A DNA stretch of 64,000 nucleotides from Candidatus Heimdallarchaeum aukensis (lineage in GTDB: Archaea > Asgardarchaeota > Heimdallarchaeia > Heimdallarchaeales > Heimdallarchaeaceae). The notes beneath the pieces are model-generated. The model was not told where the DNA came from. It did not search any database and worked only from the letters and a program-made list of their open reading frames with translations. The DNA is taken from NCBI GenBank assembly GCA_021513695.1, contig CP084166.1:2656001-2720000 (forward strand), in the 5' to 3' direction. Position 1 is the stretch's first letter. Every line of letters begins with the position of its first letter. Positions 1 through 23,365 of the stretch are shown in pieces. The position numbers were made by a program, and so were the translations under genes.

Positions 1-2
1 TG

Positions 3-1233: not shown

Positions 1234-1235
1234 AA

Positions 1236-3629: not shown

Positions 3630-3641
3630 TAGGTGAATTAA

Positions 3642-4532: not shown

Positions 4533-4549
4533 AAAAAAGAGGAATAAAA

Positions 4550-5272
4550 ATGGCAAAAGCAATATCAATGAGAGAAAAAAAGGAAAAACTTGACACAGTA
4601 ACCATATATATTATGGGTCAAGGATACAAAGTTCCTTCTTCTTTAACCATAATGAAAGCAATGGAATATGCTGGTTTTAAACTTAAAAGAGGAGTCGGTT
4701 GTCGTGCAGGTTTTTGTGGAGCATGTGCAACCGTTTATAGAAAATTAGGTGATTACAAAATATATGCTAACTTAGCATGTCAAACTAAAGTCGAAGATGG
4801 GATGTATCTCACACAATTACCTTTTGTTCCTGCTAATAAAGCAGAATACAATCTTGACGAGATTAAACCTTCAGCTTCAACAATGCTCCGTTTCTATCCA
4901 GAAATAGCAAGATGCTTAAGCTGTAATGCTTGTTCAAGAGTGTGCCCACAAGATATACAAGTAATGGACTATGTTCAATACAGCTTGCAAGGGCAAATAG
5001 AAAAAGCAGCAGAACTAGCTTTTGATTGTATTCAATGCGGTCTTTGCGCAATTCGTTGCCCAGCAGAGATTCCTCAATATCATGTGGCGACATTGGCACG
5101 AAGATTACATGGTAAATATCATATGATTGCTCCTGATACTCTAGAACAAAGAGTAAAGGAAATAGAAGAAGGAAAATACGAAAAAGGATTTGAAGAGTTG
5201 ATGTCTCTATCTGAAGAAGAATTGAAGAAACGATACGTTGCAAGAGACTTTATTGATCAGAAAAAGGCGTGA
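4550..5272 (+). CDS. Fumarate reductase / succinate dehydrogenase iron-sulfur subunit-like protein (FrdB/SdhB/TfrB N-terminal type).
   Basis: 2Fe-2S motif CRAGFCGACA, plus CLSCNACSRVCP and CIQCGLCAIRCP cluster motifs. A GAGG Shine-Dalgarno-like motif lies upstream. Confidence 0.7.
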   Translation: MAKAISMREKKEKLDTVTIYIMGQGYKVPSSLTIMKAMEYAGFKLKRGVGCRAGFCGACATVYRKLGDYKIYANLACQTKVEDGMYLTQLPFVPANKAEYNLDEIKPSASTMLRFYPEIARCLSCNACSRVCPQDIQVMDYVQYSLQGQIEKAAELAFDCIQCGLCAIRCPAEIPQYHVATLARRLHGKYHMIAPDTLEQRVKEIEEGKYEKGFEELMSLSEEELKKRYVARDFIDQKKA

Positions 5273-6936
5273 GAAAAATGATTAGAGGATATCCAGAAAG
5301 TATGAGAAAAAGTATTGACAAAGTCAATAAAACAAGAGATAAGAGAATCGACCAAATTATGAAAGATTTGACTCTTGAAGAACGTGAGAAAGTATTAAAG
5401 GAATTTCACCCTGATTATAATCCAGCATATAAAAGAACTATAAGTTGGGGACAAAATAAAGGCGATTATGTTCCTAATGAAGTCGCAGATATACTGGAAT
5501 CATACCCAATCTATGATCCAGATGAGATAGATTTAAGTCAAATAGATTACGATGTTGGAATATTAATTATTGGTGCAGGAGGAGCTGGAACAGCTGCTGC
5601 TTTATGGTCTGTTTATTCTGGAGTGCCAAATGATAAGATCCTTCTAACAACTAAATTAAGGCTGGGAGACTGTAATACAGTTATGGCACAAGGAGGGATA
5701 CAAGCTGCTGATAGACCAGAAGATTCACCTTTAATTCATTATTTAGATGCTATGGGTGGAGGACACTTCAAAAATAAACCAGAGTTAGTAAAAGCACTTG
5801 TTTCAGATGGTCCCAAAATAATCAAATGGCATAAAGAACTAGGTTTAATGTACGATCAGAATGAAGATGGAAGTTTTGTAGAAAATGCTGGAGGAGGAAC
5901 ATCTAGAAACAGAATGCACTGCGCAAAAGATTATACAGGAATGGAAATTTTCAGAAATCTAAAAGATGAAGTTATTAACAATGAGATACCTTTATTGGAA
6001 TTTTCACCTGCAGTAGAATTGCTAAAAGATGAAAATGGAAGAGTAGCTGGTGCATTGTTATATAATCTAGAAACAAAAGAATATTCCGTCGTAAGAGCAA
6101 AAACAACCATTTTAACAACAGGAGGTTTTGGAAGATTACACATCGCAGGATTTGCAACAACAAATCACTATGGGGCAACAGGAGACGGAATAGTTATGGC
6201 TTATAGAGCAGGAGCTAAACTAAGAGATTTAGACTCAACACAGTTCCACCCAACAGGAGCAGCTTTCCCTGAACAAATAGTAGGTCTGTTAATTACTGAA
6301 AAAGTAAGAAGTTTAGGAGCACAAGTTTTAGGAAAGAATGGAGAACAAATCTGCTATCCACTAGAACCAAGAGATGTAGAGGCTGCTTCAATAATAAGAG
6401 TAACAAAAAGTACAGATAATTATGTTGAAACTCCAACAGGAATGAGAGGAGTCTGGTTAGATAGTCCATTAATTGAAGAAATCAGAGGAAAGGGAACAAT
6501 TGATAAGAATCTTGCTGCAATGAAAAGAATGTTTGCAAGGTTTGATATTGACATGACAGAAGATCCCATACTTGTTCATCCAACCCTTCATTATCAGAAT
6601 GGAGGAGTGGAACTCGATGAAAATGGATATACTTCTGTACCAGGTTTACTAGGCGCAGGTGAAATAAGCGGAGGAGTACATGGAAAGAATCGTCTTATGG
6701 GTAACTCTCTGCTTGAGGTCAATGTTTTCGGTAGACGAGCAGGTATAACTGCTGCTAAAGAATATAAACGAGGTAAAAAACCAGGCAAACTTACTTTATC
6801 ACATGTAAAGAAAACTATTGAGCAATTAGATGCTCTAAACATTAAGAAAAAACGCTTTTCACCTATCATTCTTCCAGAATATCGTAGTGAAGCAGTAAGA
6901 GACAGATTAATTCAACTATTTGAATCTAGTCTCTAA
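5269..6936 (+). CDS. Fumarate reductase / succinate dehydrogenase flavoprotein subunit-like protein (FrdA/SdhA/TfrA family), apparently soluble.
   Basis: Rossmann dinucleotide motif GILIIGAGGAGTAAAL. Catalytic QFHPTG (HPT) motif and a C-terminal capping region. The position of the covalent-FAD histidine is occupied by Cys (RLGDCNTV), suggesting non-covalent FAD. There is an N-terminal extension of about 100 aa. Its start overlaps the previous stop. Confidence 0.8.
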   Translation: MRKMIRGYPESMRKSIDKVNKTRDKRIDQIMKDLTLEEREKVLKEFHPDYNPAYKRTISWGQNKGDYVPNEVADILESYPIYDPDEIDLSQIDYDVGILIIGAGGAGTAAALWSVYSGVPNDKILLTTKLRLGDCNTVMAQGGIQAADRPEDSPLIHYLDAMGGGHFKNKPELVKALVSDGPKIIKWHKELGLMYDQNEDGSFVENAGGGTSRNRMHCAKDYTGMEIFRNLKDEVINNEIPLLEFSPAVELLKDENGRVAGALLYNLETKEYSVVRAKTTILTTGGFGRLHIAGFATTNHYGATGDGIVMAYRAGAKLRDLDSTQFHPTGAAFPEQIVGLLITEKVRSLGAQVLGKNGEQICYPLEPRDVEAASIIRVTKSTDNYVETPTGMRGVWLDSPLIEEIRGKGTIDKNLAAMKRMFARFDIDMTEDPILVHPTLHYQNGGVELDENGYTSVPGLLGAGEISGGVHGKNRLMGNSLLEVNVFGRRAGITAAKEYKRGKKPGKLTLSHVKKTIEQLDALNIKKKRFSPIILPEYRSEAVRDRLIQLFESSL

Positions 6937-7642
6937 AGTCTTTAACGACTATTTTCTTTTTTTCCATCTCTTTTTCTAATAATCTTATTGGAAATATTTT
7001 TCCATGTGAAGGATAAAGCCATTTTACACCTTCATCTATTAGTTTTTTCCAACTTTCGTATATCTTTTCCTTTTTATTTGCGACTATAGGAAAATAGCTT
7101 CTTCCTGAAAGCAAAGGAAACTTCATAACTATGTCTCCTACAAAAGCATGTTTTTGTTTAAAAATTAATGAAATTGAACCATCAGTATGACCTAATGTAT
7201 GAATTATCTTAGCATCAAATCCATATTCTTTTAGGGAAAATTCATCACTTACTTTAATATCAACAGAAAAAGGAGCTATCTCACGCTTTGTAGAAGAAAA
7301 AATCTTCTTAAGCAATTTATTAGTTAAAACTGCTTCTGGTGTATCTCCCTTTTCCACTAATTCAGCCTCTATTTTGTGCATTAAGACTTTTGCTCCTGTA
7401 ATCTCTTTTATCTCTTTTACAGAACCAATATGGTCTATATGTGCATGTGTAATGATAATTAGCTTGATATTTTCTGGTTGAATAGAATTTTTTTGTAAAA
7501 AATGAACTATCTTTTTATGACTTTTTGGCATTCCTGTATCAACTAAAATACAATTATTATTCTCTTTTATTAGAAAACTATTGACATAACCCAATTTTAT
7601 TCTATGGATAGAAACCATACTTACCAAAGAAAGTTCTTGCAT
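6926..7642 (-). CDS. Metallo-beta-lactamase-fold hydrolase.
   Basis: HxHxDH motif (THAHIDHIG) and downstream HTLGHTDGS. The C-terminal 11 nt overlap the convergent frdA-like gene. Confidence 0.7.
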   Translation of the reverse strand: MQELSLVSMVSIHRIKLGYVNSFLIKENNNCILVDTGMPKSHKKIVHFLQKNSIQPENIKLIIITHAHIDHIGSVKEIKEITGAKVLMHKIEAELVEKGDTPEAVLTNKLLKKIFSSTKREIAPFSVDIKVSDEFSLKEYGFDAKIIHTLGHTDGSISLIFKQKHAFVGDIVMKFPLLSGRSYFPIVANKKEKIYESWKKLIDEGVKWLYPSHGKIFPIRLLEKEMEKKKIVVKDFRD

Positions 7643-9394: not shown

Positions 9395-10801
9395 TTAGAT
9401 AAAATCTCCCGTTTCTATTTTCTGTGGGAGGTAGAAGTTTGTAATAAATTGTGGGTCACGTGCATTTAATGCTTGTATTTCTGCTTTATAACCTGTATTT
9501 ATTAGGATTTCAAGTTGTTCTTGCCATTTTGGTTTTCTCTTTACGAACTCTTCTTCAAGCATTAACTTTGATCTTCTTATGTCTTTTTGAGTCATTTTGA
9601 TTAGTGCTTCTCTAGGAATATCAAATCCACTTTCAGGTTTTAGATCACTTGGGAGCAAACCTAACCATTTAATATTTGGCACTGCAAGATGGGTTGATTC
9701 GAAACTAAGAGCTTTACTTCCAACGCTATATACTCTCATGATTTCGAATCCGTAAGGGTCAGCATCCATAATGGCAAGAATAGGTAATTGTAAGTCATCA
9801 TTTATTTTCTTTAGAAACTGTCTTGTTGCCATGTCAGGTTGACCTTTAGCTGTAACTAAAATGCTTGGTACATAATCGTAAAAATGGTCTTCTGCTAACC
9901 TGTTAAAAATAGCATCTTTTTCAATAACTAAACAAAATTCAGCATCACTTTCTAAATCTTCGATGTCATCTATATTTGGTGAAATAGCTTTTCCTGAACC
10001 GATAGCTCTACAATCTATAAGATCACCCTTTTCCTTGAATTGTAACTTTCCTACAACAATACCTTTAGACGATGCACTAACATTTAGTGAAGTCCTCGTA
10101 GCTTGTATCATTGCTCCTAAATCTTCAATAAGAGAGTCTGATACTGCTTGTTTCTTAAACGCATTCACATTCATGTAGAAAATATCTCTTTTTGTACTGT
10201 GAATATCACGTGATAGTATGTCATGAAGAAGTCTCATTAATATTGACATTTGTTCAATCGTGCTTACAGAGGATAAACTCCTAAATTGGCGTTCTATCAT
10301 TTGTCTACCAATAAGTACTAATTCTTGTTCTTCATCAAAACCAATATTTCTCTTTCCTCTTGAAGGAATTTTAAAACTAGCTTCATCAGGTTTGTTAAGT
10401 GCTTCATTCAAAAATAATAATGCTGCTTCAACAATTTTATTTTTAGCTTTTTCCGAAGACATTGTTTCTACATTAGTTACACCATAAGGTAACTCATAAT
10501 CCTGCAATAAAGTAAGTTCGTTTCTAAGTTTCCTTATTTTATCAACTGGAACTTTTCTTTTTATTTCAATTCTCATTAATTCTTTCTTAAGAGGATAATT
10601 ACCTAAGGTTTTACCTTTCTCTAGAGGATACCACTTCTTTCCGCTTCTCAAAAAGAGTACAAAAGATCCTTTTTTAAGTTCAAATTCTTCTTGTAATATT
10701 TGAAATAATTCATTTATCTGAATACTGTTATCAAAACTCATTTTTACTTCAGTTGAAGGCAATATTGTTGCATTTTTTACTAAAAAATTATAGTTTACCA
10801 T
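9395..10801 (-). CDS. top6A: DNA topoisomerase VI subunit A (Spo11 homologue) with an N-terminal extension of roughly 80-90 aa.
   Basis: CAP/winged-helix region with the catalytic tyrosine motif TKRDIFYMN. Toprim domain: LVIEKDAIFNRL...VTAKGQPDMATRQFLKKI...ILAIMDADPYGFEIM. The gene lies 10 nt downstream of the top6B stop (canonical top6B-top6A operon). Confidence 0.85.
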   Translation of the reverse strand: MVNYNFLVKNATILPSTEVKMSFDNSIQINELFQILQEEFELKKGSFVLFLRSGKKWYPLEKGKTLGNYPLKKELMRIEIKRKVPVDKIRKLRNELTLLQDYELPYGVTNVETMSSEKAKNKIVEAALLFLNEALNKPDEASFKIPSRGKRNIGFDEEQELVLIGRQMIERQFRSLSSVSTIEQMSILMRLLHDILSRDIHSTKRDIFYMNVNAFKKQAVSDSLIEDLGAMIQATRTSLNVSASSKGIVVGKLQFKEKGDLIDCRAIGSGKAISPNIDDIEDLESDAEFCLVIEKDAIFNRLAEDHFYDYVPSILVTAKGQPDMATRQFLKKINDDLQLPILAIMDADPYGFEIMRVYSVGSKALSFESTHLAVPNIKWLGLLPSDLKPESGFDIPREALIKMTQKDIRRSKLMLEEEFVKRKPKWQEQLEILINTGYKAEIQALNARDPQFITNFYLPQKIETGDFI

Positions 10802-10810
10802 TTTTCCACC

Positions 10811-13800
10811 TCATTTTGTACTCCTTTTTTTGGTTTCAATTTTTGTATCAGCTGAAATTTCATCTAAAGTTGTTTGTTTTGTTCGCTTTGAAGTTGTTGT
10901 TTTCTTTGTTGTTGTACTTGGTCTCTTTGTTTTAGTAGTCGTTGTTTTCTTTGTTGTTGTACTTGGTCTCTTTGTTTTAGTAGTCGTTGTTTTCTTTGTT
11001 GTTGTACTTGGTCTCTTTGCTTTGGTAGTCGTTGTTTTTACAAAAGGAATTGTCTGTTTGATCTTCTTTATATCATTATAAGTCATCTCTAGCTTTCCTT
11101 CAAGCTGAGATGTCGGATAAGCAATAAATTCTCCAATTGTATTAATTCCAAGTGAGTTCAACTTATTTCGTATTTGCTGTTTAACATCTAATTTTTCTAT
11201 TGGCTCTTCTATTAACTTTAGTAATTTTTGAACATTTTTGTTTTTGAAAATATCTTTTCTCTTCGTACGATTATCAGCAAATATCAACTCTTCAAACGAA
11301 GATATCCCTATTTCTTTTAATTTTGATATAATCTCACTGCTCATAAATGGTGTACTTTTCACTATTTGCGTTTTACCCTTCTTTGCAATTTTTAGAGATT
11401 GAGGAGTTAAAGTTGCAAAATAGTTTCTTAACTGCCTTTCTGTTATATTAGTAATTTCAGTCAGTTCGTTAATTTTTGTATTAAAAACATCCCAGAGAGA
11501 ATACTTCTGTTTATGGTATAATTTAAAGATACTGTTTGGTTTATCCTGCATTAGTGCATAGAATGAGTAAATTGGGTATGAAAGAAGTTCTTTTAATGTG
11601 GATATCTGTCTGATTGATAACTCTGTTTGTTCTTTAATTCTCTTATCAGAAACTGATAAATGTATAATGTGGGAATACCCACCGTTTTCCAATATGGATT
11701 TTTCAGTATCTGAAAATAGACCTAAATCTTTAATCCTATAGCTATTTAGTTCTAATTGCTCTTTCACTTTAGTCATGTTAAGAGAGTTAAGAAGTTCAGT
11801 AAATTCTGCACGTTGTTTTTCTGTAAATTTAATCTGTAAATCATCTATATTTTGTAGGAAGAAAAGATCATAAACTTGTTCATAACCTCTTTTTGCTAGT
11901 TGAAAAAGTATATTCTTTTGACGTATAAATAATGCTAATGATGCTCTAAAACAAGAAAGAACATCTTTTACTTTCATGGATAAGTCGCTGATATTTTTCT
12001 CTTCAAACAAAGCAATTAGTTCACCTAATGAATTTATATCATTTTCATTTAGCTCGTTAATTATTTCTTTATCGTTTACAAAATCTATAAGTTTAGAATT
12101 GCTTTGAGATGCTAATGAATCTAGATCATGGAACGGAATTTGAGATAAAAGGTTTTTAAGGACAGTTATGTTTGAAGATTTATTTAATAATAGTAAATCA
12201 TAAACTGTTTTTGTATTACTTTTTAGTAGAAGCCTAAATGTTTCCTTACTCTCAAAGACAAGTGGAAGAGAGTAAATTTTTTGTTCAATTCTTAAACGGA
12301 GTTTTTCCGTGATCTTCCATCTCTTTGAAGTTTTTGATTTTGATACAATATTAAACACGTAAGCCTCTTCTATAGAGAAAATGTGACCTTGACTTAAAAC
12401 ATCTAATTCAGTTTTATCCAAAATTGTTTCAGGAATGGGGGTTAACTTAGATGCTAGAGTACGTAATGTTTCTAGTGATAGATTTCGAATCTGACGTATT
12501 AGTCTATTATCGTCGATTATCTGACTTAACTGGTATCTAGGTTTTAAAATTAAATCTCCTATTGTTAAGTTGCCATATTGTTTGAATTTCTCTTTATTTT
12601 CAAAACTTTCATTGACTAGCAAAATAACATGCCTATTTAGAAATTGTAAGTATTCATTAAAGTGTAAAGTTATGGTCTCTGGGAAAGAACTTGTAATTTT
12701 GTCAAATTGCTTTTTATCATATTTCTCCAAGAGAAGTAAGGATTCAAGGGTATATTGGACTTTTAGTTCATCTTTTTCAGGAAGATTCAACTTTTCTTCG
12801 AATTTGGTTGGTTTTGAGAAAATAAATGAGTAAATATCAAGTAGTCTCTTGGATACTTGAGAATTTACTTTTAGAGAATCATGATGTATATTGAAGAAAA
12901 CTAATTGTTGAAAACTTAAGTCTGGGAGTTTTTCGTCAAAATATCGCGAAGAGAGTTTTTGTAAAAGTCCAATTTTTGTTCTTAATGAAGGTGAAAGGTT
13001 AGAAACAACATCAGTGTTTTCAAAGAGATCAAGATAATTCTTAATACCATTTTCTCTCAATTCAGCAATATCAAAATCTTGTAGAACAATGTTTGTTTTT
13101 AGAGCAGGGGGGTTGCTTATTCTAGAAATAGTAATCTTACTAAGAAAAGTGTCAACTTCACTAATGTTTGTGCTTATAATTTTTGCAAGAGCTGGCTTAG
13201 ATAACAAAAGCATTTCTTGTAGAGTACTTACTTTGGATAAAAGTTTTAACCAATTTTCGAGAGGAAGTTGTGGGAAAGAAATCAGATAAATAGATTTGTT
13301 TAATATCTTTTGAACATTATTTCGTAATTTACTTCTCAATTTACAGTGTTTTTTTGATAAATCATAAACCAAATCGTCAATAACTGTATAATATTTCAGT
13401 AATTTTTTCTTTGTTTCACTATCAAACAGCATAATATTGGAAAGTTGAACTCTTTTATCTCTCAATTTTTTAATTGTTTTAACATTCAAAGTTGAGAGAA
13501 CATGATTAACTTTCTCAAGTTGTTTTTCTGATAAGAATGAAGAATATGAAATAGGTTTAATTAGTAAATCCTTTAGTGTTTCGATTTTATGTTCATTCAG
13601 TTTTTCTACTTCTTTTTCAGTGAAATCTGTTATTATAGAGACAGAACTGTTAAGGAGGTTTAGAATCTCTAATCCTGTTTTAGTAAGAAACTCTTTGTTC
13701 ATGTATAAAACAGAAATAAAATCAATGATATTTGAGATCTCTGGAATTTCAATGTTTTTGCTGAATAAGTTTTTTGAATTAATAGTACCAAGAAAATCTT

Positions 13801-16800
13801 TTGTCTTTAACGTAAGAGATAATGTTTTCTTTTTATCTTTAATCAGATTACTAATTATGGTGTTATAATCACCAAAGCTGACTAGTTGATCGTTTTTAAC
13901 AAGATCTCTGATGGTGAAAAGATTGTTGTCAAAGTATTTTGTTTCAATCTCTTCAAATTTTAAGGAGTTAATAGAGCTTAAGAATAGGATTGATGTATCT
14001 AAAATTTGTTTTATTTTTGTTCTTATTTTTTCTATCTTTTTAATATCATAAAGCCAGTTGTATATTGAATTCTCTTCTAAATCTGAAAAACTATAGAATC
14101 CATAAGATAACAAAGTAGATTTTTCTTTTTCACTAAGAAATGGTAAATCTACAAAATGATTTGGCTTATCTTTTTCAATTGTTTTCTTGATTTTATCAAT
14201 CTTTATTGATGAGCGTAGTTTCAATATTTGATCAAGTTTAATCCTTGATTCTTTTGCGACTGTTTTATACGGAATAAGCAGTAGATCTGCGATAGTGTAT
14301 GTTCCACCTTTTTTAAGGTTAGTTTCTATTTTCTCTTCTAGTCCTAAATATCGAATATTGGCTAGTAAATATGGGCTAATTTCTGCAAATATGCTCTTAT
14401 CTTTTAGATTAACATCTCCAAGTAATTCTTGATAAGATAAGTACCCAAGTTTCATTGCTTTTTCTTCATATGAACCTAAAGGAGGAATAAAACTTTCAAG
14501 ATGTAGATTTTTTAACATTGATAGACTTGATAAAATTTCATCAACCATTGCATCATCTAGATTTTGGATAGAGGAAATAACATCTATAATGTAAACTAAC
14601 TTCTTGTTATAACAAGATTTTATTGTATCTAATGTCAATATAGGTAGATTGTTTATGTTTCTACTTAATTTCATTCTAATATCTTTAATTTCTTCAATGT
14701 ATGAATCTGGTAGGCTTAAGAAAAACTCTTCAGGGAAGTAATATAGATATTCAATTGAGAAAACTCCCAAACTGTATAGCTTTTGAACTAATGACTTATT
14801 TAACTTTAAGTTTGCAATATCAAGAGTAGAGAATTGAAGGGAAGATAGATTCCTAATGAAAAGAGAATTGTTCTCTTTTATGGCTTTATCCAATTTTGGG
14901 AGAAGGGTTTCCCACAGGTGAATAGGAATATGAAGGTAGTCATAATATGTTTTTTTATTTTTTAAAGATTCATTAATATTTTTTGTTGAAATCCCGAGTA
15001 TACGCTCAATTGTCTTTATTGGTGTAAAGAGAATAGGTATATTCACTATCAACTTTTCTTTTTCATCTTTGTTTATTTCTAATTGATCTACATCATGATA
15101 AAATAGTTGAATTAAAGAGTAAATCTCATTTTCATTAAGATATTCGATTGTAGAAACCTCGGGTTTTTTGATTGTTTTTGGACTAGTACCTTCTTTAGCT
15201 TCACGTTTTTTAATAAGTGGAAGTTTACCCTCTTTTGTTAGTTCTTTTTCAGTTAAGGATGGTAAAAGGTTTAAGTCGATTCCATAGAGTTTAAGTTCAG
15301 AAACAATATTTCTTTTACTAATCTGTAATTTAATAGTGTTTATCTCTTTATACTCTATTTCAAATAATTTACCCAAAGAAACTGATGGAATAGATAAAAA
15401 TTCAAGTATAGTGTTAATCTTATTTTCAAAGAGAATAGAGTTTTGTTGCAATGAAAGTGAACTTAAGAAGGAAATTGGAGTTGTTCCAAACAATGAGAGA
15501 GTCTTTTTTATTGATGATAAATTCTTATCTTCTGAACTGTAATCCTGTAAACAAAGAAGTTGATCTAAATACTCAATATTAATCTTTTTTAGATATAGCT
15601 TCTGTTGTTTGGACAAAAATTTTACATCACGTAACTTAATTGCCCATTTAGGTATTTGAAAATCAGATAAAGAACTTACTACATATTCTGCTAGTTCTAT
15701 GTCAATATTGTCTGGAGGAAGAAGTAATAAATCAAGAATAAGTTTTTTATCTTCCTTCATCAAATTTCTCAAAAACTCAAGCTGATCTATTTGAGAAAAT
15801 TTATCTAACCAAATAATTGGATATTTTACCATACTTGTAAGAGAATTAGAATTACTAAAGAGAATTTGAGAACTTATGACAAATGGTTGAGGAAGCAGAT
15901 CTAGTAGATTAATAACATCGGGAGAGGTCTTAATGTCTAGTTTATCACTTTTATTTGATAGAATGTCCAGATGATCTTTGGGAATTAAGTTAACTAATTT
16001 TTCTTTAGAAAATTCTTTTACAAAACGGATAATCTCACTTCTAGCATTTGATGGAATAGTTCTCTTTTCTTCAGAGCTAAGAGTAAGAAGTTCAATAATA
16101 TTTTTAACTCCATTTTTCCATAAATCAAGTTTGACGTCTAAACTCATGTCTGAGATAGAAAAAATATTTAGACATAAACCATAGATTAGTTCTTCAAGTT
16201 TAGCAATACTACTCGCTTTTTCTATTTTTTCACTTTCTGAGAATATAAGCAAGTATTCTGGTACCAACCCAAAGATATCTTCAAATGATGCTTTTGAAAG
16301 GTTGAATTTAAAGTCTGTGAGTGTACTTATTAATTCTTTATCTTCTTCAAGAATAGGTATGCCTGAACTAAGGCTTATGTTTCCCTTTCTTTTATCTTTT
16401 AACTCTTCAGGAATGGAATTGAATATCTTCTTAAGATCTTTTTCTCTAACTATAAAGAGGTCAATAACTCGTAGAATGCGGTTTTTTGCAAGACTACGTT
16501 TAATAAAGCGTGAAAGGTTTGAAATTCTGAAGACTGAAGAGTTACAAAGAGAGAGAAAATTATCAATATTTTCCTTAAATTCTTCAGAAAATGATTTTAT
16601 TTGATAACAAAGACCATAAAGATCTTGAACTGTGTCCTTATTCAGTTTTTGTAAGCTAAGAAGATTTCTCTTTGACAATAACGCAAGAGATTCAAGTTTT
16701 ATTCCTTTTTCTTCAACTTCATTTAGTATTTTTTTAACTGAAATATTTTCTTTTATTTTGATAATTTCAGTTTCAGGTATGTCTAAAATTAATGATATCG

Positions 16801-19800
16801 TAGTGATGTCTTCTGTTAAGAAGGTGAGTATATCCCCGACGCCAGAATAAACAAGTTTTAACATTTGTTCTAACTCTAAATCCAAGAAGAATACAGATGA
16901 GAGATACAACTTTGCTTCTTTAAATACATTCATGTTCACTAGATATGGGTATGATTTTCTGATTTCAGACATTCTAGAAATGAAGTCTTGAATTGAATAA
17001 ATCCCTAATTCATGTAATTTTTCTACATATTCACTTGTTATTGATGGACAATTTTCTAGAGGAATTGCAAAACGAAGTCTTTTCTCTTTTAATTCATCTA
17101 AAGATAACAAGTCAAATATATGAAATTCATCATAAATAGGATTGTTTAGAATTTGTGATAATTGTCCTTTTTCAAAAAGAGACAAATCGATTACTGAGTG
17201 AATATCCTGTAATTCTAGTTTCTTTATTTCTTCAAAAGACAAGAAACTAAGAAAAGTTATTGAACCTGATAATATTTCTTTAAATTCTCTATATTTCTCT
17301 TGCTTTAAGATACTGGATGCACCCATTCTTACTCCAGCATAGTACAAAGTTTCTATGTCTGATATTCCTATATCTCGTAATTTAGAAATTTCAGTTTCCG
17401 TGATGAGAGAAGAAGGCATAATAGGGTGAGATCTTGCTTTGTGTAATTCAACAATTTCACTATAAGATAGATTTTCCTTTATTTCATTAATCCTTTTTTG
17501 TGTTTCATTAGATATTTCAGAAAGTTTTTTGGTTGGTGTTGAATAAAAGTCTATTAATGTTGTAATTGAAGATCTGCTAAGAGGAAGAGCAAGATTAACG
17601 TCCAAGTTTAGTGAAGAAATAGGAATAGACAAATCACCTATAAGTTTATCTAAACTATTTTCTTCACCTAGTTTGTTTTTAATTTCCAAGAGAGGAGAGT
17701 TCTCCTCGAATTCAAGTTCAAATAAGCTCCCTAAAGTAATTATAAAGTATTTATTCCTCATATCTTCACTTAAAAGATTGAGAAAAGGTGTAATTCCAAG
17801 TGGTAATTCAAAAACTGAACGAATAAGTGTAATGTTACATTTTTCAAAAGCTAATTGTCTTTCAAATTCGCTGAGGGTTTTTATCAAATCTGTGCTGGAA
17901 ATAACATCAAGTAATGTTAACTCTTCAATATCTTCCAGAATAGTAGAAAAGAAGTCTTTATTGTAAGCAGTTGCAGAAAGAAAATCAAAGTAGTGATAAG
18001 CTCTCAAGTCAATTAATTTAGAAGAATAGTCTGAAACAGTTCTAAATAGCGTTCTATCCGTTAAATCGCTATCTAATATGAATATTAAATGGTAAAGGTG
18101 GGTTATTTGGTTTTGATTAAAAATAGTCAAAGAATAATCTGAAATCTCCTGAAAAATCCGTAAAGGAAGTGATAATATTTTCTTTAATGTGAAAACTTTT
18201 CTCCAGATTGATGAGTTTCTGTCGATGAAAACTTCATCGGGACAGTAGAAAAGTTCTTGAATTGATTGAAATCCTTCATAACTGTAAATTGTTTCTCTAC
18301 TTAGCGTTCTTTGTTCATTTTTGTCAAAAAGTCTAGTTTCATATGCATAGATTGCTCGCGCCTCATATTCTTCTCTTATTCTCTGTGATGTTAAAATGTC
18401 AATTATTTCCTTTGTTTCTTTTGTTGTAATGTTTAGGATATTACTGAGTTTAACAGATGAAGTAGAAACGAAATCAACTATAGTTAATATACCCGCTTTT
18501 CTCAATTCTTCAGTTTGTGAAAAAGAGATATTTGGTAAGAAATAAACAGGGAGACTGAAAAAGTAAAAAATTTCACCAAGATCTAGACTTCTCTTAATAT
18601 TATCAAAACGTTCGTCGGGAATCCCTGTTCTTTCCATTAGAACTTTAGATGACGTAAGTAGAAAACCTAACAATGTATTTATTTTGTTTTTCTTTAAGAG
18701 CTTAATTATATCTGGATCTAACATGTCTGACAAGTGCTTAAATCGTAAATTTAGCACATTTTTTAAATTCTGAACTATCTCCCATGGAATTGTTCTTATT
18801 GCCCATTTTTCTTGCTGAGTAGAAAAGTATAGGTCCTCAATGGTAAAGATGTTGTTAGTTTCTAAAATTTCTACTATCGATGGTCTAAAGATATCAAGTT
18901 CAGAAATATCTGTTCCAGTTTCACTAATCCTGATATTTTTCTTGTATTTTTTAGCTTCTTCTAAATCAATTTTTAAAATAGAAGCGATTGTTTCATCACT
19001 AACAAGGAAAAAGTCAATGATTCTTCTGATTCCAGTTTTTCTTAGAGCATTCAGCTGTTCATGGGATAAGCTTGTTATTTCAATTTCTTCAATTTCTTCC
19101 TCTTGTTTTGTTTCTTCATTTAATATCTTCTTCTTTGTGGTTTTTTCCCAAGTAACTAGCGTCAGGGGAGAACGCAATAGTTTCTTGAATTTTTCAATTA
19201 CACCCCATTTTATTATGGGAGCACCAAAAGTGTAAGGGTGTGTTAAATAAAATAGCTGGTCTATAGAATTGTAACCAATAACAAGTAAAGAACGGATTTC
19301 TTCAGGTGAAAAACGTTCTGAATTTTCAAAATCAAAGGAGATTATTGATTCATACTTACCACTAGATACTTTCTCGTAGAATGGTTGTCCATCTCTATTT
19401 ACATCAAAATTGTTTATTAACTCATCAAAATTCTTCTTTGAAAAATTAAGTATCGTGCTTAATTCATCAAAACTGTAATTTAAAAATTGGTGCAGAGAGT
19501 AAATCTTTTTTGAAGCTAATACTTCATAATCTTTAAGTTTCAAGCTTTTTATACGAGTGATTGGTAATTGCAAAAACTGATAGAAATCAATTATTTCGTG
19601 AGATAACAAAACTTTTTCTGCAAACTCATCAGTATCTTTAAGATTTTTACTATTTATATTGTCGTAGAGTTCAAGTAAAATTTTTTTGTCTTTATTTTTT
19701 GAAATTTCTGTCTCAATAAATACAGGTGTAAGTTGAAGGAAATCTCTTATTGTATTTACATCCTTGGTTTTGAGCTTAAGAAGAGCATCATTCAATGACT

Positions 19801-21732
19801 TTGCTTTAGATTTTGTTGGGGCTAACTTTGCTAAAAATATTAGATCTTCATTCATGAATTCTCTAAAGTTATTCATCTTAGTTAAAAGATCTGAAATCGA
19901 CGGAAGTTCTTCTTCAATATAAAAGTAAAACAACTCTTGTATTGTTGTTTGTTGTTCATTGAATTGCTTAACCAATCTTGGAAAGTGTTTTTTTATTATT
20001 TTTAAATTTCCTTTGTATCTTTCTTTATTTTTTGTAATCTTGTTAGCAGATATACTTTGTTTTAGACGTATAATTTCTTGTTCGTTAAGGTTTAATACCA
20101 AAGAGAGTTCTTTATTACTCCATATTAGAAACCTGCCTATACAGTTTACTCCAATTTCATTCAAAACGTTAATTTTCTCGTTTAGTTCAGGAAAAGCAAA
20201 AATCAAGGGAGTTCGTAATAGTAAGTAATCTGAAACATATTGTTTCTTTGTTTGTTCATCTTTAAATTCAAAATTCTCTGGTTGAGAATATAGAATGTCC
20301 TCTACTGTATAAATTTCATATTTACTTGCTTTGTTCTTCAAAGATAGAAAGTTAGGAATGGGCGTACCTATCTTTTTCTTTATTCTTGCAATCTCGCTTT
20401 TTAATAAACCCATTTCGCGTAATTTTTTCGATGGTGTAATCAAGAATGATGTGGAAGTAAATATCTTGTTTTCTAGCAATTTTTCTTCAGCTTTTTCACT
20501 AATCACTTTTAAGTGTGATAGGTCAAGGTCTTTATTTACTTCATTAAGATGAGAAAGAATGCGAAACTTTGATTCTTCTAATAGACTATCAACAAAAACA
20601 CTTAGTTCTTTTTTCATTAACGTTCTTAATTTAGCGTTTGCATATTGTGCTAAGGTTTCTATATTCGCTGATTTAAGACTGTCTAGTATGTTTTTTCTTA
20701 TATTGTCATCTATGGTTGATATTAGTCCTAGTTTGTTAAGAGGGATAGATCTCTCGCTGTTAGCTAGAATAGTGAAAAATCTAGTATAAATAGAACGCTC
20801 TAATTCTTTGATTTCTAAAAGGTCTTTAGTTGGCGTTTTAAGAAAATTATCTATTGTCTCTATCTTTCTTCTATGAAAAGCATTTTTAGAATATCCATCT
20901 ATCCAATCAGGTTTCATTTTTGTAATGTTGACCTTTAGAAAATCAGGAAACTTTTCTGAAACATGTGAAAATACCTTTTTAACGTAATCAATCAACATTT
21001 CTGTTAAATCATTATCATATTTAAACGAAAAAGGCTCATTGAACTTATAAATAAAATCCTCTAACCCCTTAAACTTATTTGAAAAGTTGGGATAACTTGT
21101 TTTTATATAATTGAAATCTGGATACAGAAATTCTTCTTTTAACTCTGAATAATCAGACATAGTTTCTAAATTAAATTTAAATTCTTCGATAAAGATCGAC
21201 AACTCTACTGTTTCTTGGCCATCTTGAGATTTTGTAACTTCGTTAATTAGCTTAAATTTGTTATCTTCTATTAGACGTTCTACTAAACCTTCAACTAAAC
21301 GCAATTGTGTAGCTTCTGTAGCTAAATAATGATAGCTATTTTGAATCCATCTTTGATATAATGCTTCATTGAAACTACTACTAGTTCCTTGACGTGCAAA
21401 CCTCTTATCTATCATTTTATTTGTTAATGCTTTTAGTGGGAGTTCAGGGCTCAACTTAGACCTGTCTAGTTCATAAATTGTTCTTTGTTTTATTCTTGAA
21501 ACTTCTTTTTTTGAAAGATTCAAAATAGGAGCTAGTTCTGAAACAGGTATGGAAAGAAACTTTCCAATTGTTAAAATATCACTTTTAGCACAACTTTTCT
21601 TGTATTTATCAGGGCACCACACATTAAGTTCAAAAATGGGTGTCCCTAAAGGAACAAAATTTCTAATTTTCTTTTTTGCTCCGTGAGCTAGAGCTGCTGC
21701 AACTTTATATTTTTCTTTATTTATGTTTGTAT
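10811..21732 (-). other. C-terminal extension of the giant protein. A tandem array of degenerate helix-hairpin-helix (HhH)-like DNA-binding motifs (I can see more than 20 by eye). It resembles RNAP alpha-CTD / Topo V style (HhH)2 units.
   Basis: The pattern L..[LIV]G[IVLF].[ST][IV].[DE][LF]......EL..I.GI....A..I recurs. Examples: LRKAGILTIVDFVSTSSVKLSNILNITTKETKEIIDIL; KLHELGIYSIQDFISRMSEIRK; LRDIGISDIETLYYAGVRMGASSIL; LYSLGVFSIEYLYYFPEEFF; LRENGIKNYLDLFENTDVVSNLSPSLRTKIG; LKEIGISSFEELIFAD; LNSLGINTIGEFIAYPTSQLEG. There are no long exact DNA repeats, so the array is ancient and diverged. Confidence 0.55.
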
Positions 21733-23365
21733 AAACTATTTTTTCATTCTCTAAAATTCTTGCGAGGTTATCAATTACAACAGGTGCTGATCGTACAAAA
21801 CGGGATAATCGTGCATGTTCTCTTTTCCTTCTTTTTGCTCTACTAAGGAATGTTTTAAGTCTTCTACCAAGTTGTTGTAAAGCTAACCTAATCTCTTCTT
21901 CAATTTCTGGGACGGTTGAGATATACTCCTTACTCGTTTCAGGAAAAGGTATTTTTGTACTTACAATTGATACTGCAATCGCGAGAGGATCTGATTGTCT
22001 TGTAAGACCGTATTCACTCCAATTAAGCGAAGAAACTACTTTTGTAATAACGTCATTTCCCGCACCAAAAATTAAAGGAATTCTATTTGCATATCGATAA
22101 ATTATTTTGTTGTCGACTGACGTGCTTCCTTTTTGTTGAGCATATTTTGATACTCCCCCCCCATAACCTATTGCTGCTTCAACGATAAAAGGATGACCAG
22201 AATAAGCTTTTGGAGGACGAGAAATCGCTTCTACAAACTCTGGTTCAAGTTCTTTTTCTAAACCTTTTCTTAATCTTGCTGCTCCTAAAGGAGAAAGAGC
22301 ATCACCTTGTGGAGCATCAAATCTAAAGATTCTATCTCTTTTTCTTTTTATTTCTTTAGCCTCTTGGTAGGCTTTGATAAATCCTTCATGAACTATTCTT
22401 CTAATTTCTTTAGAAGTAAGGTCGCTAGGCTTTTTATTAGGGTCAATTTCTAAAATCTGAAAGAACTCTTCAGCTACTTCTTTTCTTACTCCCATAAAAT
22501 CTTTTGACAGAAAATCAACTAGATTTTCTGCAGAAGTAGCAGCAATTTTTGCTTTAAACTGAGTGATATCACATCCAAATGGGTGTAACTGAATTACTTT
22601 AGGAGGGTCGGGCATATCATCTACTACTTTTTGGAAAACTAATGTTTCACTTGTTCCTTCTTCATCTCCTGGAAGAACTACAGTAAAACTTGCATAGGGA
22701 GTAATTATAGCTAATTGTTTAAAATACTCCTTAATACTGTTCTTTGCTAGATTCCAAGCTCCAGTAAAAGTTATACTTATCTCAGTACCGCTAGTGTGCA
22801 AATATCCTGGGTCATCTGGATTATATTCGTGTTGTTCCATAATAACAGGTTCATTTTTTTCCAAGTTGATCATTAAATGAACTTCTGTAGTCATTTCTTC
22901 CATGAAGTATCTGCTCTTTATCCTTGCAGGAAGATCTACAGATGACATAGAATGTAGTAGACACATCTTGGCTCCTAAACCAAATCTGCCTCTAGTTTGA
23001 ATTACTCCATATTTTGTTCCTGTTAATACTCTACCAAAAAGATTTGGAATCTCATGACCAGGAACACCTACACCGTTATCTCTACATGTTAACTGAAGAA
23101 AATCAAGATGTTTTTCTAACTGTTTATATCTGGTAATATCTAATAATTCATTAATTTCAGAACTTGATAACTTCCTTAATTCAATATATATTTCAGGGTT
23201 CACACCTAGTTTTTCTGCTGCATCTAAGCCATTCTCGACCAATTCTCTAACAGAGGTAAAAACAGCTCGCATCGAGTTGCCAAAACCTGCAATGGCCTTA
23301 TTTTCATTGAAGAAAGCAGCTGCACTCATTTTTCGTGTTTTATTTTCTTCAGCCACAAAATTCAC
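10811..23365 (-). CDS. top6B: Giant 4184-aa protein. An N-terminal complete topoisomerase VI subunit B module (GHKL ATPase, H2TH, transducer) is fused to a huge C-terminal extension of about 3640 aa. The extension is built of HhH-like repeats and ends in a basic K/T-rich tail.
   Basis: A single uninterrupted 12.5 kb ORF in a roughly 30% GC genome. N-terminal motifs: Bergerat N-box ELVENGLDAAE, G1 box CRDNGVGVP, G2 box TRGRFGLGAK, transducer motif IYRYANRIPLIFGAGNDV, and a long C-terminal helix of the transducer. All plus-strand ORFs inside are short antisense shadows. Confidence 0.85.
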   Translation of the reverse strand: MNFVAEENKTRKMSAAAFFNENKAIAGFGNSMRAVFTSVRELVENGLDAAEKLGVNPEIYIELRKLSSSEINELLDITRYKQLEKHLDFLQLTCRDNGVGVPGHEIPNLFGRVLTGTKYGVIQTRGRFGLGAKMCLLHSMSSVDLPARIKSRYFMEEMTTEVHLMINLEKNEPVIMEQHEYNPDDPGYLHTSGTEISITFTGAWNLAKNSIKEYFKQLAIITPYASFTVVLPGDEEGTSETLVFQKVVDDMPDPPKVIQLHPFGCDITQFKAKIAATSAENLVDFLSKDFMGVRKEVAEEFFQILEIDPNKKPSDLTSKEIRRIVHEGFIKAYQEAKEIKRKRDRIFRFDAPQGDALSPLGAARLRKGLEKELEPEFVEAISRPPKAYSGHPFIVEAAIGYGGGVSKYAQQKGSTSVDNKIIYRYANRIPLIFGAGNDVITKVVSSLNWSEYGLTRQSDPLAIAVSIVSTKIPFPETSKEYISTVPEIEEEIRLALQQLGRRLKTFLSRAKRRKREHARLSRFVRSAPVVIDNLARILENEKIVYTNINKEKYKVAAALAHGAKKKIRNFVPLGTPIFELNVWCPDKYKKSCAKSDILTIGKFLSIPVSELAPILNLSKKEVSRIKQRTIYELDRSKLSPELPLKALTNKMIDKRFARQGTSSSFNEALYQRWIQNSYHYLATEATQLRLVEGLVERLIEDNKFKLINEVTKSQDGQETVELSIFIEEFKFNLETMSDYSELKEEFLYPDFNYIKTSYPNFSNKFKGLEDFIYKFNEPFSFKYDNDLTEMLIDYVKKVFSHVSEKFPDFLKVNITKMKPDWIDGYSKNAFHRRKIETIDNFLKTPTKDLLEIKELERSIYTRFFTILANSERSIPLNKLGLISTIDDNIRKNILDSLKSANIETLAQYANAKLRTLMKKELSVFVDSLLEESKFRILSHLNEVNKDLDLSHLKVISEKAEEKLLENKIFTSTSFLITPSKKLREMGLLKSEIARIKKKIGTPIPNFLSLKNKASKYEIYTVEDILYSQPENFEFKDEQTKKQYVSDYLLLRTPLIFAFPELNEKINVLNEIGVNCIGRFLIWSNKELSLVLNLNEQEIIRLKQSISANKITKNKERYKGNLKIIKKHFPRLVKQFNEQQTTIQELFYFYIEEELPSISDLLTKMNNFREFMNEDLIFLAKLAPTKSKAKSLNDALLKLKTKDVNTIRDFLQLTPVFIETEISKNKDKKILLELYDNINSKNLKDTDEFAEKVLLSHEIIDFYQFLQLPITRIKSLKLKDYEVLASKKIYSLHQFLNYSFDELSTILNFSKKNFDELINNFDVNRDGQPFYEKVSSGKYESIISFDFENSERFSPEEIRSLLVIGYNSIDQLFYLTHPYTFGAPIIKWGVIEKFKKLLRSPLTLVTWEKTTKKKILNEETKQEEEIEEIEITSLSHEQLNALRKTGIRRIIDFFLVSDETIASILKIDLEEAKKYKKNIRISETGTDISELDIFRPSIVEILETNNIFTIEDLYFSTQQEKWAIRTIPWEIVQNLKNVLNLRFKHLSDMLDPDIIKLLKKNKINTLLGFLLTSSKVLMERTGIPDERFDNIKRSLDLGEIFYFFSLPVYFLPNISFSQTEELRKAGILTIVDFVSTSSVKLSNILNITTKETKEIIDILTSQRIREEYEARAIYAYETRLFDKNEQRTLSRETIYSYEGFQSIQELFYCPDEVFIDRNSSIWRKVFTLKKILSLPLRIFQEISDYSLTIFNQNQITHLYHLIFILDSDLTDRTLFRTVSDYSSKLIDLRAYHYFDFLSATAYNKDFFSTILEDIEELTLLDVISSTDLIKTLSEFERQLAFEKCNITLIRSVFELPLGITPFLNLLSEDMRNKYFIITLGSLFELEFEENSPLLEIKNKLGEENSLDKLIGDLSIPISSLNLDVNLALPLSRSSITTLIDFYSTPTKKLSEISNETQKRINEIKENLSYSEIVELHKARSHPIMPSSLITETEISKLRDIGISDIETLYYAGVRMGASSILKQEKYREFKEILSGSITFLSFLSFEEIKKLELQDIHSVIDLSLFEKGQLSQILNNPIYDEFHIFDLLSLDELKEKRLRFAIPLENCPSITSEYVEKLHELGIYSIQDFISRMSEIRKSYPYLVNMNVFKEAKLYLSSVFFLDLELEQMLKLVYSGVGDILTFLTEDITTISLILDIPETEIIKIKENISVKKILNEVEEKGIKLESLALLSKRNLLSLQKLNKDTVQDLYGLCYQIKSFSEEFKENIDNFLSLCNSSVFRISNLSRFIKRSLAKNRILRVIDLFIVREKDLKKIFNSIPEELKDKRKGNISLSSGIPILEEDKELISTLTDFKFNLSKASFEDIFGLVPEYLLIFSESEKIEKASSIAKLEELIYGLCLNIFSISDMSLDVKLDLWKNGVKNIIELLTLSSEEKRTIPSNARSEIIRFVKEFSKEKLVNLIPKDHLDILSNKSDKLDIKTSPDVINLLDLLPQPFVISSQILFSNSNSLTSMVKYPIIWLDKFSQIDQLEFLRNLMKEDKKLILDLLLLPPDNIDIELAEYVVSSLSDFQIPKWAIKLRDVKFLSKQQKLYLKKINIEYLDQLLCLQDYSSEDKNLSSIKKTLSLFGTTPISFLSSLSLQQNSILFENKINTILEFLSIPSVSLGKLFEIEYKEINTIKLQISKRNIVSELKLYGIDLNLLPSLTEKELTKEGKLPLIKKREAKEGTSPKTIKKPEVSTIEYLNENEIYSLIQLFYHDVDQLEINKDEKEKLIVNIPILFTPIKTIERILGISTKNINESLKNKKTYYDYLHIPIHLWETLLPKLDKAIKENNSLFIRNLSSLQFSTLDIANLKLNKSLVQKLYSLGVFSIEYLYYFPEEFFLSLPDSYIEEIKDIRMKLSRNINNLPILTLDTIKSCYNKKLVYIIDVISSIQNLDDAMVDEILSSLSMLKNLHLESFIPPLGSYEEKAMKLGYLSYQELLGDVNLKDKSIFAEISPYLLANIRYLGLEEKIETNLKKGGTYTIADLLLIPYKTVAKESRIKLDQILKLRSSIKIDKIKKTIEKDKPNHFVDLPFLSEKEKSTLLSYGFYSFSDLEENSIYNWLYDIKKIEKIRTKIKQILDTSILFLSSINSLKFEEIETKYFDNNLFTIRDLVKNDQLVSFGDYNTIISNLIKDKKKTLSLTLKTKDFLGTINSKNLFSKNIEIPEISNIIDFISVLYMNKEFLTKTGLEILNLLNSSVSIITDFTEKEVEKLNEHKIETLKDLLIKPISYSSFLSEKQLEKVNHVLSTLNVKTIKKLRDKRVQLSNIMLFDSETKKKLLKYYTVIDDLVYDLSKKHCKLRSKLRNNVQKILNKSIYLISFPQLPLENWLKLLSKVSTLQEMLLLSKPALAKIISTNISEVDTFLSKITISRISNPPALKTNIVLQDFDIAELRENGIKNYLDLFENTDVVSNLSPSLRTKIGLLQKLSSRYFDEKLPDLSFQQLVFFNIHHDSLKVNSQVSKRLLDIYSFIFSKPTKFEEKLNLPEKDELKVQYTLESLLLLEKYDKKQFDKITSSFPETITLHFNEYLQFLNRHVILLVNESFENKEKFKQYGNLTIGDLILKPRYQLSQIIDDNRLIRQIRNLSLETLRTLASKLTPIPETILDKTELDVLSQGHIFSIEEAYVFNIVSKSKTSKRWKITEKLRLRIEQKIYSLPLVFESKETFRLLLKSNTKTVYDLLLLNKSSNITVLKNLLSQIPFHDLDSLASQSNSKLIDFVNDKEIINELNENDINSLGELIALFEEKNISDLSMKVKDVLSCFRASLALFIRQKNILFQLAKRGYEQVYDLFFLQNIDDLQIKFTEKQRAEFTELLNSLNMTKVKEQLELNSYRIKDLGLFSDTEKSILENGGYSHIIHLSVSDKRIKEQTELSIRQISTLKELLSYPIYSFYALMQDKPNSIFKLYHKQKYSLWDVFNTKINELTEITNITERQLRNYFATLTPQSLKIAKKGKTQIVKSTPFMSSEIISKLKEIGISSFEELIFADNRTKRKDIFKNKNVQKLLKLIEEPIEKLDVKQQIRNKLNSLGINTIGEFIAYPTSQLEGKLEMTYNDIKKIKQTIPFVKTTTTKAKRPSTTTKKTTTTKTKRPSTTTKKTTTTKTKRPSTTTKKTTTSKRTKQTTLDEISADTKIETKKRSTK
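10896..11030 (-). repeat. Near-perfect 3 x 45-nt direct tandem DNA repeat. It encodes a KTKRPSTTTKKTTTT x3 basic Lys/Thr-rich C-terminal tail of the giant protein.
   Basis: Unit gttgttttctttgttgttgtacttggtctctttgttttagtagtc occurs at 10896-10940 and 10941-10985, and at 10986-11030 with 2 substitutions. A partial degenerate copy lies upstream. The unit is in-frame (15 aa). Confidence 0.9.
21733..23365 (-). other. TopoVI-B homologous region of the giant protein (aa 1 to about 545). Comprises the GHKL/Bergerat ATPase, H2TH domain and transducer.
   Basis: Motif positions counted in the translation: N-box at aa 41-50, G1 at about aa 95-102, G2 at about aa 124-133, transducer RYANRIPL at aa 424-431, and a C-terminal helix extending to about aa 545. 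Confidence 0.7.

Follow-up and report, generated by a model that had tools for sequence, protein, structure and literature searches.

Lysine-rich, low-complexity C-terminal repeats of the PAKKA type modulate DNA binding and end apposition in Mycobacterium smegmatis Ku and Hlp (PMC3553676). Here we analysed a 64,000-nucleotide (nt) stretch of Candidatus Heimdallarchaeum aukensis DNA (the window), in which an in-frame tandem array of a 45-nt unit lies near the 3' end of a giant gene for the B subunit of topoisomerase VI (top6B). The array encodes most of a Lys/Thr-rich tract, and tracts of matching position and composition are present in the orthologous giant proteins. The PAKKA-type repeats of mycobacterial Ku and Hlp are its closest experimentally studied analogues.

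Like the PAKKA/KAAK tails of mycobacterial Hlp/MDP1 and M. smegmatis Ku, the Top6B tract is C-terminal, repetitive (3.3 units), rich in lysine (K+R 33%), free of acidic residues (D+E 0) and carried by a DNA-binding protein, here after an array of helix-hairpin-helix (HhH)-type modules. PAKKA-type tails are found in some lineages only and differ in length among relatives, as the Top6B tracts do, and the tracts of the orthologues L015 and L020-L025 are truly K/P/A-rich. The tail thus belongs to a known class, the lysine-rich C-terminal extensions of DNA-binding proteins. It differs from PAKKA-type tails in its host, which is an Asgard type IIB topoisomerase subunit, in the Thr-rich composition of the tract in the window (T+S 56%, P+A 7%), and in the conserved terminal peptide that follows.

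The C-terminal domain of linker histone H1 is, as predicted for the Top6B tail, a disordered polycationic tail made of K, S/T, P and A, and the (KKKTTP)n tracts of the orthologues L003 and L006 contain the H1-type TPKK motif. In contrast to H1, Thr rather than Ala/Pro dominates, and the tail sits on an enzyme instead of a chromatin architectural protein. An earlier note on this DNA had called the tail histone-H1-like. The composition bears this out, but membership in the family does not follow: no Linker_histone match is among the four Pfam families found on the 4,184-amino-acid (aa) protein at E<=0.01 (which include the HhH-type RAD51D_N and RNA_pol_A_CTD), and no [ST]PKK motif occurs in its last 120 aa. 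An AT-hook was rejected as well, as the tail of the window protein has no GRP core and K-R-P-S comes nearest to it.

The C-terminal region of eukaryotic topoisomerase II is long, basic, S/T/K-rich, unstructured and poorly conserved. It is dispensable for core catalysis and influences the association with DNA and chromatin, and its extreme C-terminus is functionally important. The Top6B tail resembles it as a basic S/T/K-rich region. The two enzymes, however, are of type IIA and type IIB and are not homologous; the eukaryotic domain has acidic stretches and nuclear localization signals, and the Top6B tail belongs to the ATPase (B) subunit, in which about 3,550 aa of HhH modules precede it (for the eukaryotic domain, see also PMC4132749).

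Topoisomerase V of Methanopyrus kandleri has 12 tandem (HhH)2 domains (PMC9489208, PMC4838376). It shares with the Top6B protein a catalytic part followed by a long tandem HhH array, which binds DNA in topoisomerase V, but it is an unrelated type IC enzyme with 24 HhH motifs, against about 30 degenerate modules over 3,550 aa. We know of no K/T tail in topoisomerase V. The order of folded DNA-binding part, variable low-complexity linker and short conserved terminal peptide is that of bacterial single-stranded DNA-binding protein (SSB; PMC7145534). The SSB linker is Gly/Gln/Pro-rich and its tip acidic, whereas the Top6B linker is polycationic and its peptide amphipathic, with basic residues after it.

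For Top6B itself, Villain et al. 2022 (PMC9348778) described lineage-specific C-terminal extensions in gyrase-encoding archaea, Asgard archaea among them, and modelled them as a globular domain. Giant Asgard proteins are listed in Extended Data Fig. 7b of Wu et al. 2022, and neither the word "topoisomerase" nor the run number SRR15988954 was found in its supplements. In the searchable literature we found no description of a giant HhH Top6B, of its basic tail or of the tract-plus-peptide module. The new aspects are that the host is the B subunit of a type IIB topoisomerase from Heimdallarchaeaceae and that the tract is paired with a conserved terminal peptide.

The tandem array and the tract it encodes

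The earlier note had proposed a near-perfect 3 x 45-nt repeat, in frame at the 3' end of the giant top6B. Tandem Repeats Finder (TRF) reported an array at 10892..11038 with a period of 45, 3.3 copies, 97% matches, no indels and a score of 273, which makes it the strongest tandem repeat of the window (the second-best score is 56). It is also the longest tandem run in the window when periods of 10 to 200 are compared. In plus-strand register, the first two copies (10896-10940 and 10941-10985) have the same sequence, and the third (10986-11030) departs from it at 2 positions, exactly as had been noted. Shifted by 45, the sequence matches itself exactly over at most 79 nt, which makes 10896-11019 perfectly periodic (124 nt). 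When the codons of the tract were shuffled (n=5,000), the maximum in-frame tandem run was 30, compared with the observed 79. The repeat therefore goes beyond the effect of biased composition alone.

The array (10889..11038, minus strand, by TRF, register and identity comparison and codon shuffling) is in frame with the minus-strand open reading frame (ORF) 10811..23365. Translation gives three full 15-codon units on the minus strand, KAKRPSTTTKKTTTT (11023..10979), KTKRPSTTTKKTTTT (10978..10934) and KTKRPSTTTKKTTTS (10933..10889). Ahead of them stands a partial copy, KTTTT (11038..11024, minus strand). The 15-aa unit looks like a higher-order repeat of 'KxKRPSTTT' plus 'KKTTTT', two element types that are found in relatives.

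Synonymous codons are copied exactly between the units (AAA xCA AAG AGA CCA AGT ACA ACA ACA AAG AAA ACA ACG ACT ACT), while at orthologous 4-fold sites the window is 18-27% different from the sister species Ca. Heimdallarchaeum endolithica PR6 (CP084167.1). The copies therefore arose after the two species diverged, unless they have since been homogenised. The 45-nt repeat is thus a recent DNA-level duplication, as had been proposed, or a homogenised one. With a unit of 45 nt (a multiple of 3), 97% identical copies and arrays that differ among close relatives, it behaves like a coding minisatellite, and the tandem repeat in itself is an ordinary product of slippage where coding sequence is of low complexity. 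A makes up 59% of the coding strand and C 23%. An antisense ORF on the plus strand (10830..11081) is a by-product of the repeat; it had been called spurious, and its translation is indeed V/F/L-rich nonsense.

The host gene (10811..23365, minus strand; 4,184 codons) was recognised from its ORF, Pfam matches and named homologues. It encodes a GHKL-like region with a transducer domain (together about 530 aa), then about 3,550 aa with HhH-type modules, the tract and the terminal peptide. The transducer matches Pfam Topo-VIb_trans strongly (E=3.5e-57, residues 352-518). The HATPase_c (GHKL) match is weak (residues 38-135, E=4.8e-4, 21.0 bits, below the 26.4-bit gathering cutoff); the GHKL motifs are legible in the translation as N-box ELVENGLDA, G1 box DNGVGV and G2 box GRFGLGAK. 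The closest homologues of the protein are annotated as Top6B, and a Top6A/Spo11-type partner is encoded beside it, so that both the GHKL region with transducer and the partner subunit of a Top6B are present. According to an iterative hidden Markov model (HMM) built on the protein itself, residues 594 to 4088 hold about 30 degenerate modules of HhH type.

The polycationic K/T tract comprises residues 4110-4163 (54 aa; 10877..11038, minus strand) and was delimited by translation, composition and an AlphaFold2 (AF2) model. Its net charge is +18, with the composition given above; the composition parse also took in the preceding F-V, which gives 55 residues. Directly before the tract is the last HhH-type module, NKLNSLGINTIGEFIAYPTSQL...TYNDIKKIKQTIPFV (11039..11167, minus strand), supported by the iterative HMM, AF2 helices and conservation in orthologues. 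Behind the tract comes the peptide KQTTLDEI (10856..10879, minus strand; identified by orthologue comparison), followed by a short basic end, SADTKIETKKRSTK, with the TGA stop at 10811-10813 (10811..10855, minus strand, by translation). The last 36 aa are 83% identical to PR6. The array had been described as a C-terminal tail. It lies near the protein end but does not form it; it fills a linker that joins the last HhH module to the conserved terminal peptide.

The terminal peptide region of the window protein reads KRTKQTTLDEISADTKIETKKRSTK. The peptide has no second occurrence in the window and is a candidate for a short linear interaction motif. A canonical PIP-box, the PCNA-interacting peptide (Q-x-x-[LIM]-x-x-[FYW]-[FYWL]), was rejected: QTTLDEIS fits at Q1 and L4, and its positions 7-8 are I and S. 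Orthologue peptides read QTTLLDM/L/V/I, and the aromatic pair of the PIP-box is absent.

In the AF2 model of the last 260 aa, the last HhH domain is helical, with a block-mean predicted local distance difference test (pLDDT) score of 60-86. From the tract onward, the chain is coil without secondary structure (block-mean pLDDT 38-46). The model was made from a single sequence without an alignment and has a mean pLDDT of 51.6, which lends weak support for disorder. The tract is thus predicted to be unstructured.

The tract in orthologous Top6B proteins

Top6A was scanned against one genome per GTDB species, which returned PR6 and 30 further Heimdallarchaeota loci from metagenome-assembled genomes (MAGs). 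The Top6A of PR6, the only Heimdallarchaeum genome returned, is 97% identical to that of the window, and the 30 further ones are 62-87% identical. In most loci where the contig permits, the ORF upstream of top6A passes beyond the 10-kb flank (>3,300 aa), which means that the giant Top6B is clade-wide. HMMER with the last 1,200 aa against 1.84 billion representative proteins found 24 relatives only, full-length proteins of 4,341 and 4,161 aa among them; by size, three relatives are of 3,547-4,341 aa and one more distant relative is of 3,569 aa. An exact look-up of the 4,184-aa protein gave no record, and a homology search that used a word index and the last 800 aa gave no match, the low-complexity tail having probably swamped the candidates. 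The named relatives of the Top6B N-terminal region and the orthologous loci are all Asgard, mostly Heimdallarchaeota.

About 25 orthologous giant Top6Bs have a tract at the matching position and of matching composition, about one third lysine and with almost no acidic residues. Most of them share the C-terminal order of a last HhH module ending in '..LSYxAIKxxKxxLP', a basic low-complexity tract, a conserved peptide and a short S/T/K-rich end. The peptide follows the tract in the window, in PR6, in L033/P0121 and in about 20 further orthologues, and its consensus across the family is [ST]KQ[TMI]TL[LMD][DE][MLIV]. It was located at L002 9924-9947 and at the C-termini of P0122, P0123, P0124, P0126 and P0128, among others.

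In 21 orthologues the tract could be parsed between '..LSYxAIKxxKxxLP' and 'KQxTLxD'. Its length is 48-176 aa, its K+R fraction 0.22-0.40 (mostly about 0.33) and its D+E fraction 0-0.04, while T+S (0.17-0.56) trades off against P+A (0.07-0.35). The pooled tracts (1,430 residues) contain 31% K, 24% T, 12% A, 11% S, 10% P and only 0.5% D+E, compared with 10.3% D+E in the 300 aa upstream of the tracts. These comparisons show that the tract is a positionally conserved, composition-constrained module of the clade and not a peculiarity of this genome.

The sequence of the tract, in contrast, is hypervariable. The window Top6B is 88.8% identical to that of PR6 over 3,126 aa, and the top6A genes of the two share 90% of their nucleotides. 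This agrees with the published average nucleotide and amino-acid identities of 88% and 90% between PR6 and Ca. H. aukensis PM71 (PMC8813620), so that the window is probably PM71 or closely related to it. Three members of the genus have three different arrays between identical flanks (IPFVK ... KRTKQTTLDEI). The tract has 54 aa with 3.3 copies of the 15-aa unit in the window, 175 aa with the units KKTTATA, KKTTT, KKTTTA and KKPSTTA in PR6, and 153 aa with 17 copies of KKKPSTxTT in L033/P0121, which is nearly conspecific with PR6. The earlier note had expected the copy number to vary between strains; between species and near-conspecific genomes it does vary, and the units are all different too. 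As top6A differs at only 5% of 4-fold sites between PR6 and L033, the array turns over far faster than point substitutions accumulate.

The same was observed in other congeneric genomes whose Top6A proteins are 95-98% identical, where (KKPx)n tracts have 58, 63, 70 and 75 aa and (KPKA)n tracts have 55, 68 and 99 aa. A non-repetitive tract, in contrast, is constant at exactly 48 aa in three genomes. Instability thus scales with repetitiveness, which is the prediction of slippage or unequal recombination.

Shorter Top6Bs were also noted. Asgard Top6Bs of about 1,110 aa (P0019-P0045) have an internal K/T/P tract and then KD[QT][ST]IAE[FY]LGTKK, and the korarchaeal Top6B P0047 ends in ...TQLTLDDLSKKEKNK after a long K/T/E tract. 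The Asgard proteins of about 1,110 aa suggest that the linker-plus-motif module is older than the giant expansion, and the tract and peptide of the giant proteins may be such an old module.

Possible roles of the tract and the terminal peptide

We favour, with moderate confidence, the reading that the tract is a disordered polycationic tail and leash which evolved by slippage, is selected on charge rather than sequence, and serves in non-specific DNA binding and in presenting the terminal peptide. At the DNA level the tract would behave like a coding minisatellite, in which short A/C-rich units are gained, lost and made uniform through slippage at replication or unequal recombination, and length and unit identity would therefore turn over much faster than point substitutions. 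Selection would act on bulk properties only (about one third basic, essentially no acidic residues, hydrophilic, flexible), not on sequence or exact length. Lys pairs or triplets spaced by 3-6 Thr/Ser/Ala/Pro residues and recurring every 6-9 residues would then let the tail bind DNA electrostatically and without specificity, in addition to the HhH array. The same tract may double as a flexible leash from which the terminal peptide reaches a partner. The repeat, its frame, the conserved position and composition and the hypervariability are observed, whereas disorder, DNA binding and a leash function are inferred.

Several points weigh against this reading. Known basic tails that bind DNA are typically K/A/P-rich, so that a composition rich in Thr is unusual among them, and DNA binding by the tract is a prediction rather than an experimental result. 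Low pLDDT in an alignment-free AF2 model is weak evidence for disorder, and low-complexity tracts can persist by mutational bias alone. In one orthologous contig (L024 1-486, frame 3) the unit KKETAPAT, which includes a Glu, is repeated at least 19 times, and the KQTTL peptide was not found there. The peptide is also absent from L021, which has a very short tail, KTKKTSTKKTSTKKKTSTKKTSKGGSK (about 9900-10001), and from the more distant L027-L029, so a role as leash for a motif is not universal. Finally, the PR6 array comes from a Nanopore-based assembly, in which errors of fine structure are possible.

The tract could instead be an entropic spacer only, which lets the terminal peptide reach Top6A, PCNA or a chromatin protein, with its charge incidental or serving to keep the leash near DNA. 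The peptide is conserved and the tract is not, the peptide is retained over a 3.5-fold range of tract lengths, and a disordered linker with a terminal peptide is well known from bacterial SSB (PMC7145534). A neutral linker, however, needs neither about one third Lys nor the near-total exclusion of Asp/Glu seen across 21 orthologues, and L021, L024 and L027-L029 retain a basic tract without the peptide. We regard a pure spacer as possible but unlikely.

Could the tract be a functionless by-product of slippage, A/C-rich, neutral and tolerated outside the folded domains? The extremely rapid turnover of the arrays and their lineage-specific units would fit, as would the A- and C-rich coding strand, and T, K, A, P and S probably have codons that are mutational neighbours. 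On the other hand, every giant orthologue examined has a tract at the matching position, including the non-repetitive ones of constant 48 aa, and K+R stays stable while T+S trades against P+A. Acidic residues, Asn, Gln and Ile are likewise single-step neighbours of the codons in use and yet nearly absent. A single transition (AAR to GAR) turns Lys into Glu. Together with that of Asn, Gln and Ile, the near-absence of Glu points to selection on charge and flexibility and away from pure mutational drift. Together, these observations make a neutral by-product distinctly improbable.

The C-terminal domains of eukaryotic H1 and topoisomerase II are regulated by phosphorylation, and with 56% T+S the tract of the window could be thought of mainly as a modification substrate, either for O-glycosylation, which the earlier note had suggested, or for Ser/Thr phosphorylation that tunes DNA affinity. 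But T+S falls to 0.17-0.22 in some orthologues, with Pro/Ala instead, so Thr is not the conserved property, and no gene for a kinase or a glycosyltransferase was seen directly beside the locus. In archaea, the proteins known to be O-glycosylated are secreted surface proteins, while Top6B is a cytoplasmic DNA enzyme, which makes O-glycosylation of the tract unlikely. A main role in modification is, in our view, highly improbable.

Assembly of the array and its genomic setting

The repeat could also have been collapsed or duplicated in assembly and misstate the true genomic copy number. An independent assembly of run SRR15988954 (Logan, k=31) has a contig, L001, that matches the window with 100% identity along 10,925 nt and stops within the array, where 30 nt (k-1) of repeat sequence are followed by a copy-3-specific base. 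A break after exactly 30 nt is the signature of a de Bruijn branch and needs at least 2 copies in the reads; the count of 3.3 comes from the assembly. The assembly of Ca. H. aukensis PM71, the probable source genome, was made from paired-end 150-nt (PE150) reads with SPAdes (k up to 99) and Nanopore scaffolding. The exact repeat of 79 nt and the periodic span of 124 nt are shorter than the reads, so the array should be resolvable if the window is the PM71 assembly. Although short-read assemblies do fail at such arrays and the probable source genome was built from such reads, an artefact is hardly credible given the k=31 break, the repeat lengths relative to the reported largest k-mer of 99 and the read length of 150, the 2-3 substitutions that tell the copies apart, and the homologous arrays at the same site in relatives.

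Contigs are broken inside the tract arrays in L001 (1-30), L006 (1-297), L019 (1-246), L024 (1-486) and L033 (1-408), and they come from several MAGs, a Joint Genome Institute (JGI) metagenome and Logan. The arrays are a systematic break for short-read assembly between top6B and top6A. This helps explain why nearly all Top6Bs of the clade are annotated as 'partial' in databases. Long reads are needed to read the top6B-top6A locus, and the array could serve as a strain-typing marker.

The next gene downstream in the operon is top6A (9395..10801, minus strand; 468 aa; Pfam TP6A_N and Toprim). Its Shine-Dalgarno sequence GGTGG (10806-10810) abuts the TGA stop of top6B, and the order top6B-top6A is repeated in orthologous loci whose contigs extend upstream of top6A. 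A role of the repeat as regulator of top6A translation found no support, and about 75 nt separate the end of the array from the stop codon and the adjoining Shine-Dalgarno sequence. The TP6A_N domain of Top6A begins at residue 182, which leaves a sizeable N-terminal region ahead of the catalytic domain. A eukaryote-like signature insertion in conserved Asgard Top6A has been mentioned (PMC12680538).

Immediately upstream of top6B, a 978-aa ORF (23504-26440, minus strand) gave only an LVIVD-repeat signal (E=9.7e-9). The nearby ORFs 26673-27938 and 29638-30948 had no Pfam match at E<=1e-5. A 379-aa ORF (30959-32098, plus strand) has a weak match to the Tubulin/FtsZ-family GTPases (E=3.2e-7, 31.3 bits, below the 33-bit cutoff) and may be a divergent Asgard tubulin/FtsZ/CetZ-like protein. 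Downstream of top6A, window positions 1-7000 (L001 3990-11531) encode glutamate dehydrogenase, a metallo-beta-lactamase-fold protein, a NiFe-hydrogenase cluster (large and small subunits, HycI protease and FlpD/MvhD-like) and heterodisulfide-reductase-like genes (CCG, 4Fe-4S, FAD). This gene set is ordinary Asgard energy metabolism and unrelated to the tail.

The giant Top6B as a whole is more remarkable than its repeat. The tract and the peptide [ST]KQxTL[LD][DE]h might form a two-part recruitment module, in which the tract would hold DNA or chromatin non-specifically and the peptide, as a degenerate PIP-like motif, would dock to the sliding clamp, Top6A or an Asgard chromatin protein. We offer this only as a speculative and rather unlikely proposal. 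If it were true, the module would correspond, on the archaeal side, to the regulatory C-terminal domain and chromatin tether of eukaryotic topoisomerase II, and the length of the tract would tune reach or avidity under diversifying or relaxed selection. If the tail binds DNA or recruits a partner, it would provide a handle on the targeting of topoisomerase VI in the archaea closest to eukaryotes; the type II topoisomerases of eukaryotes likewise carry regulatory basic C-terminal domains.

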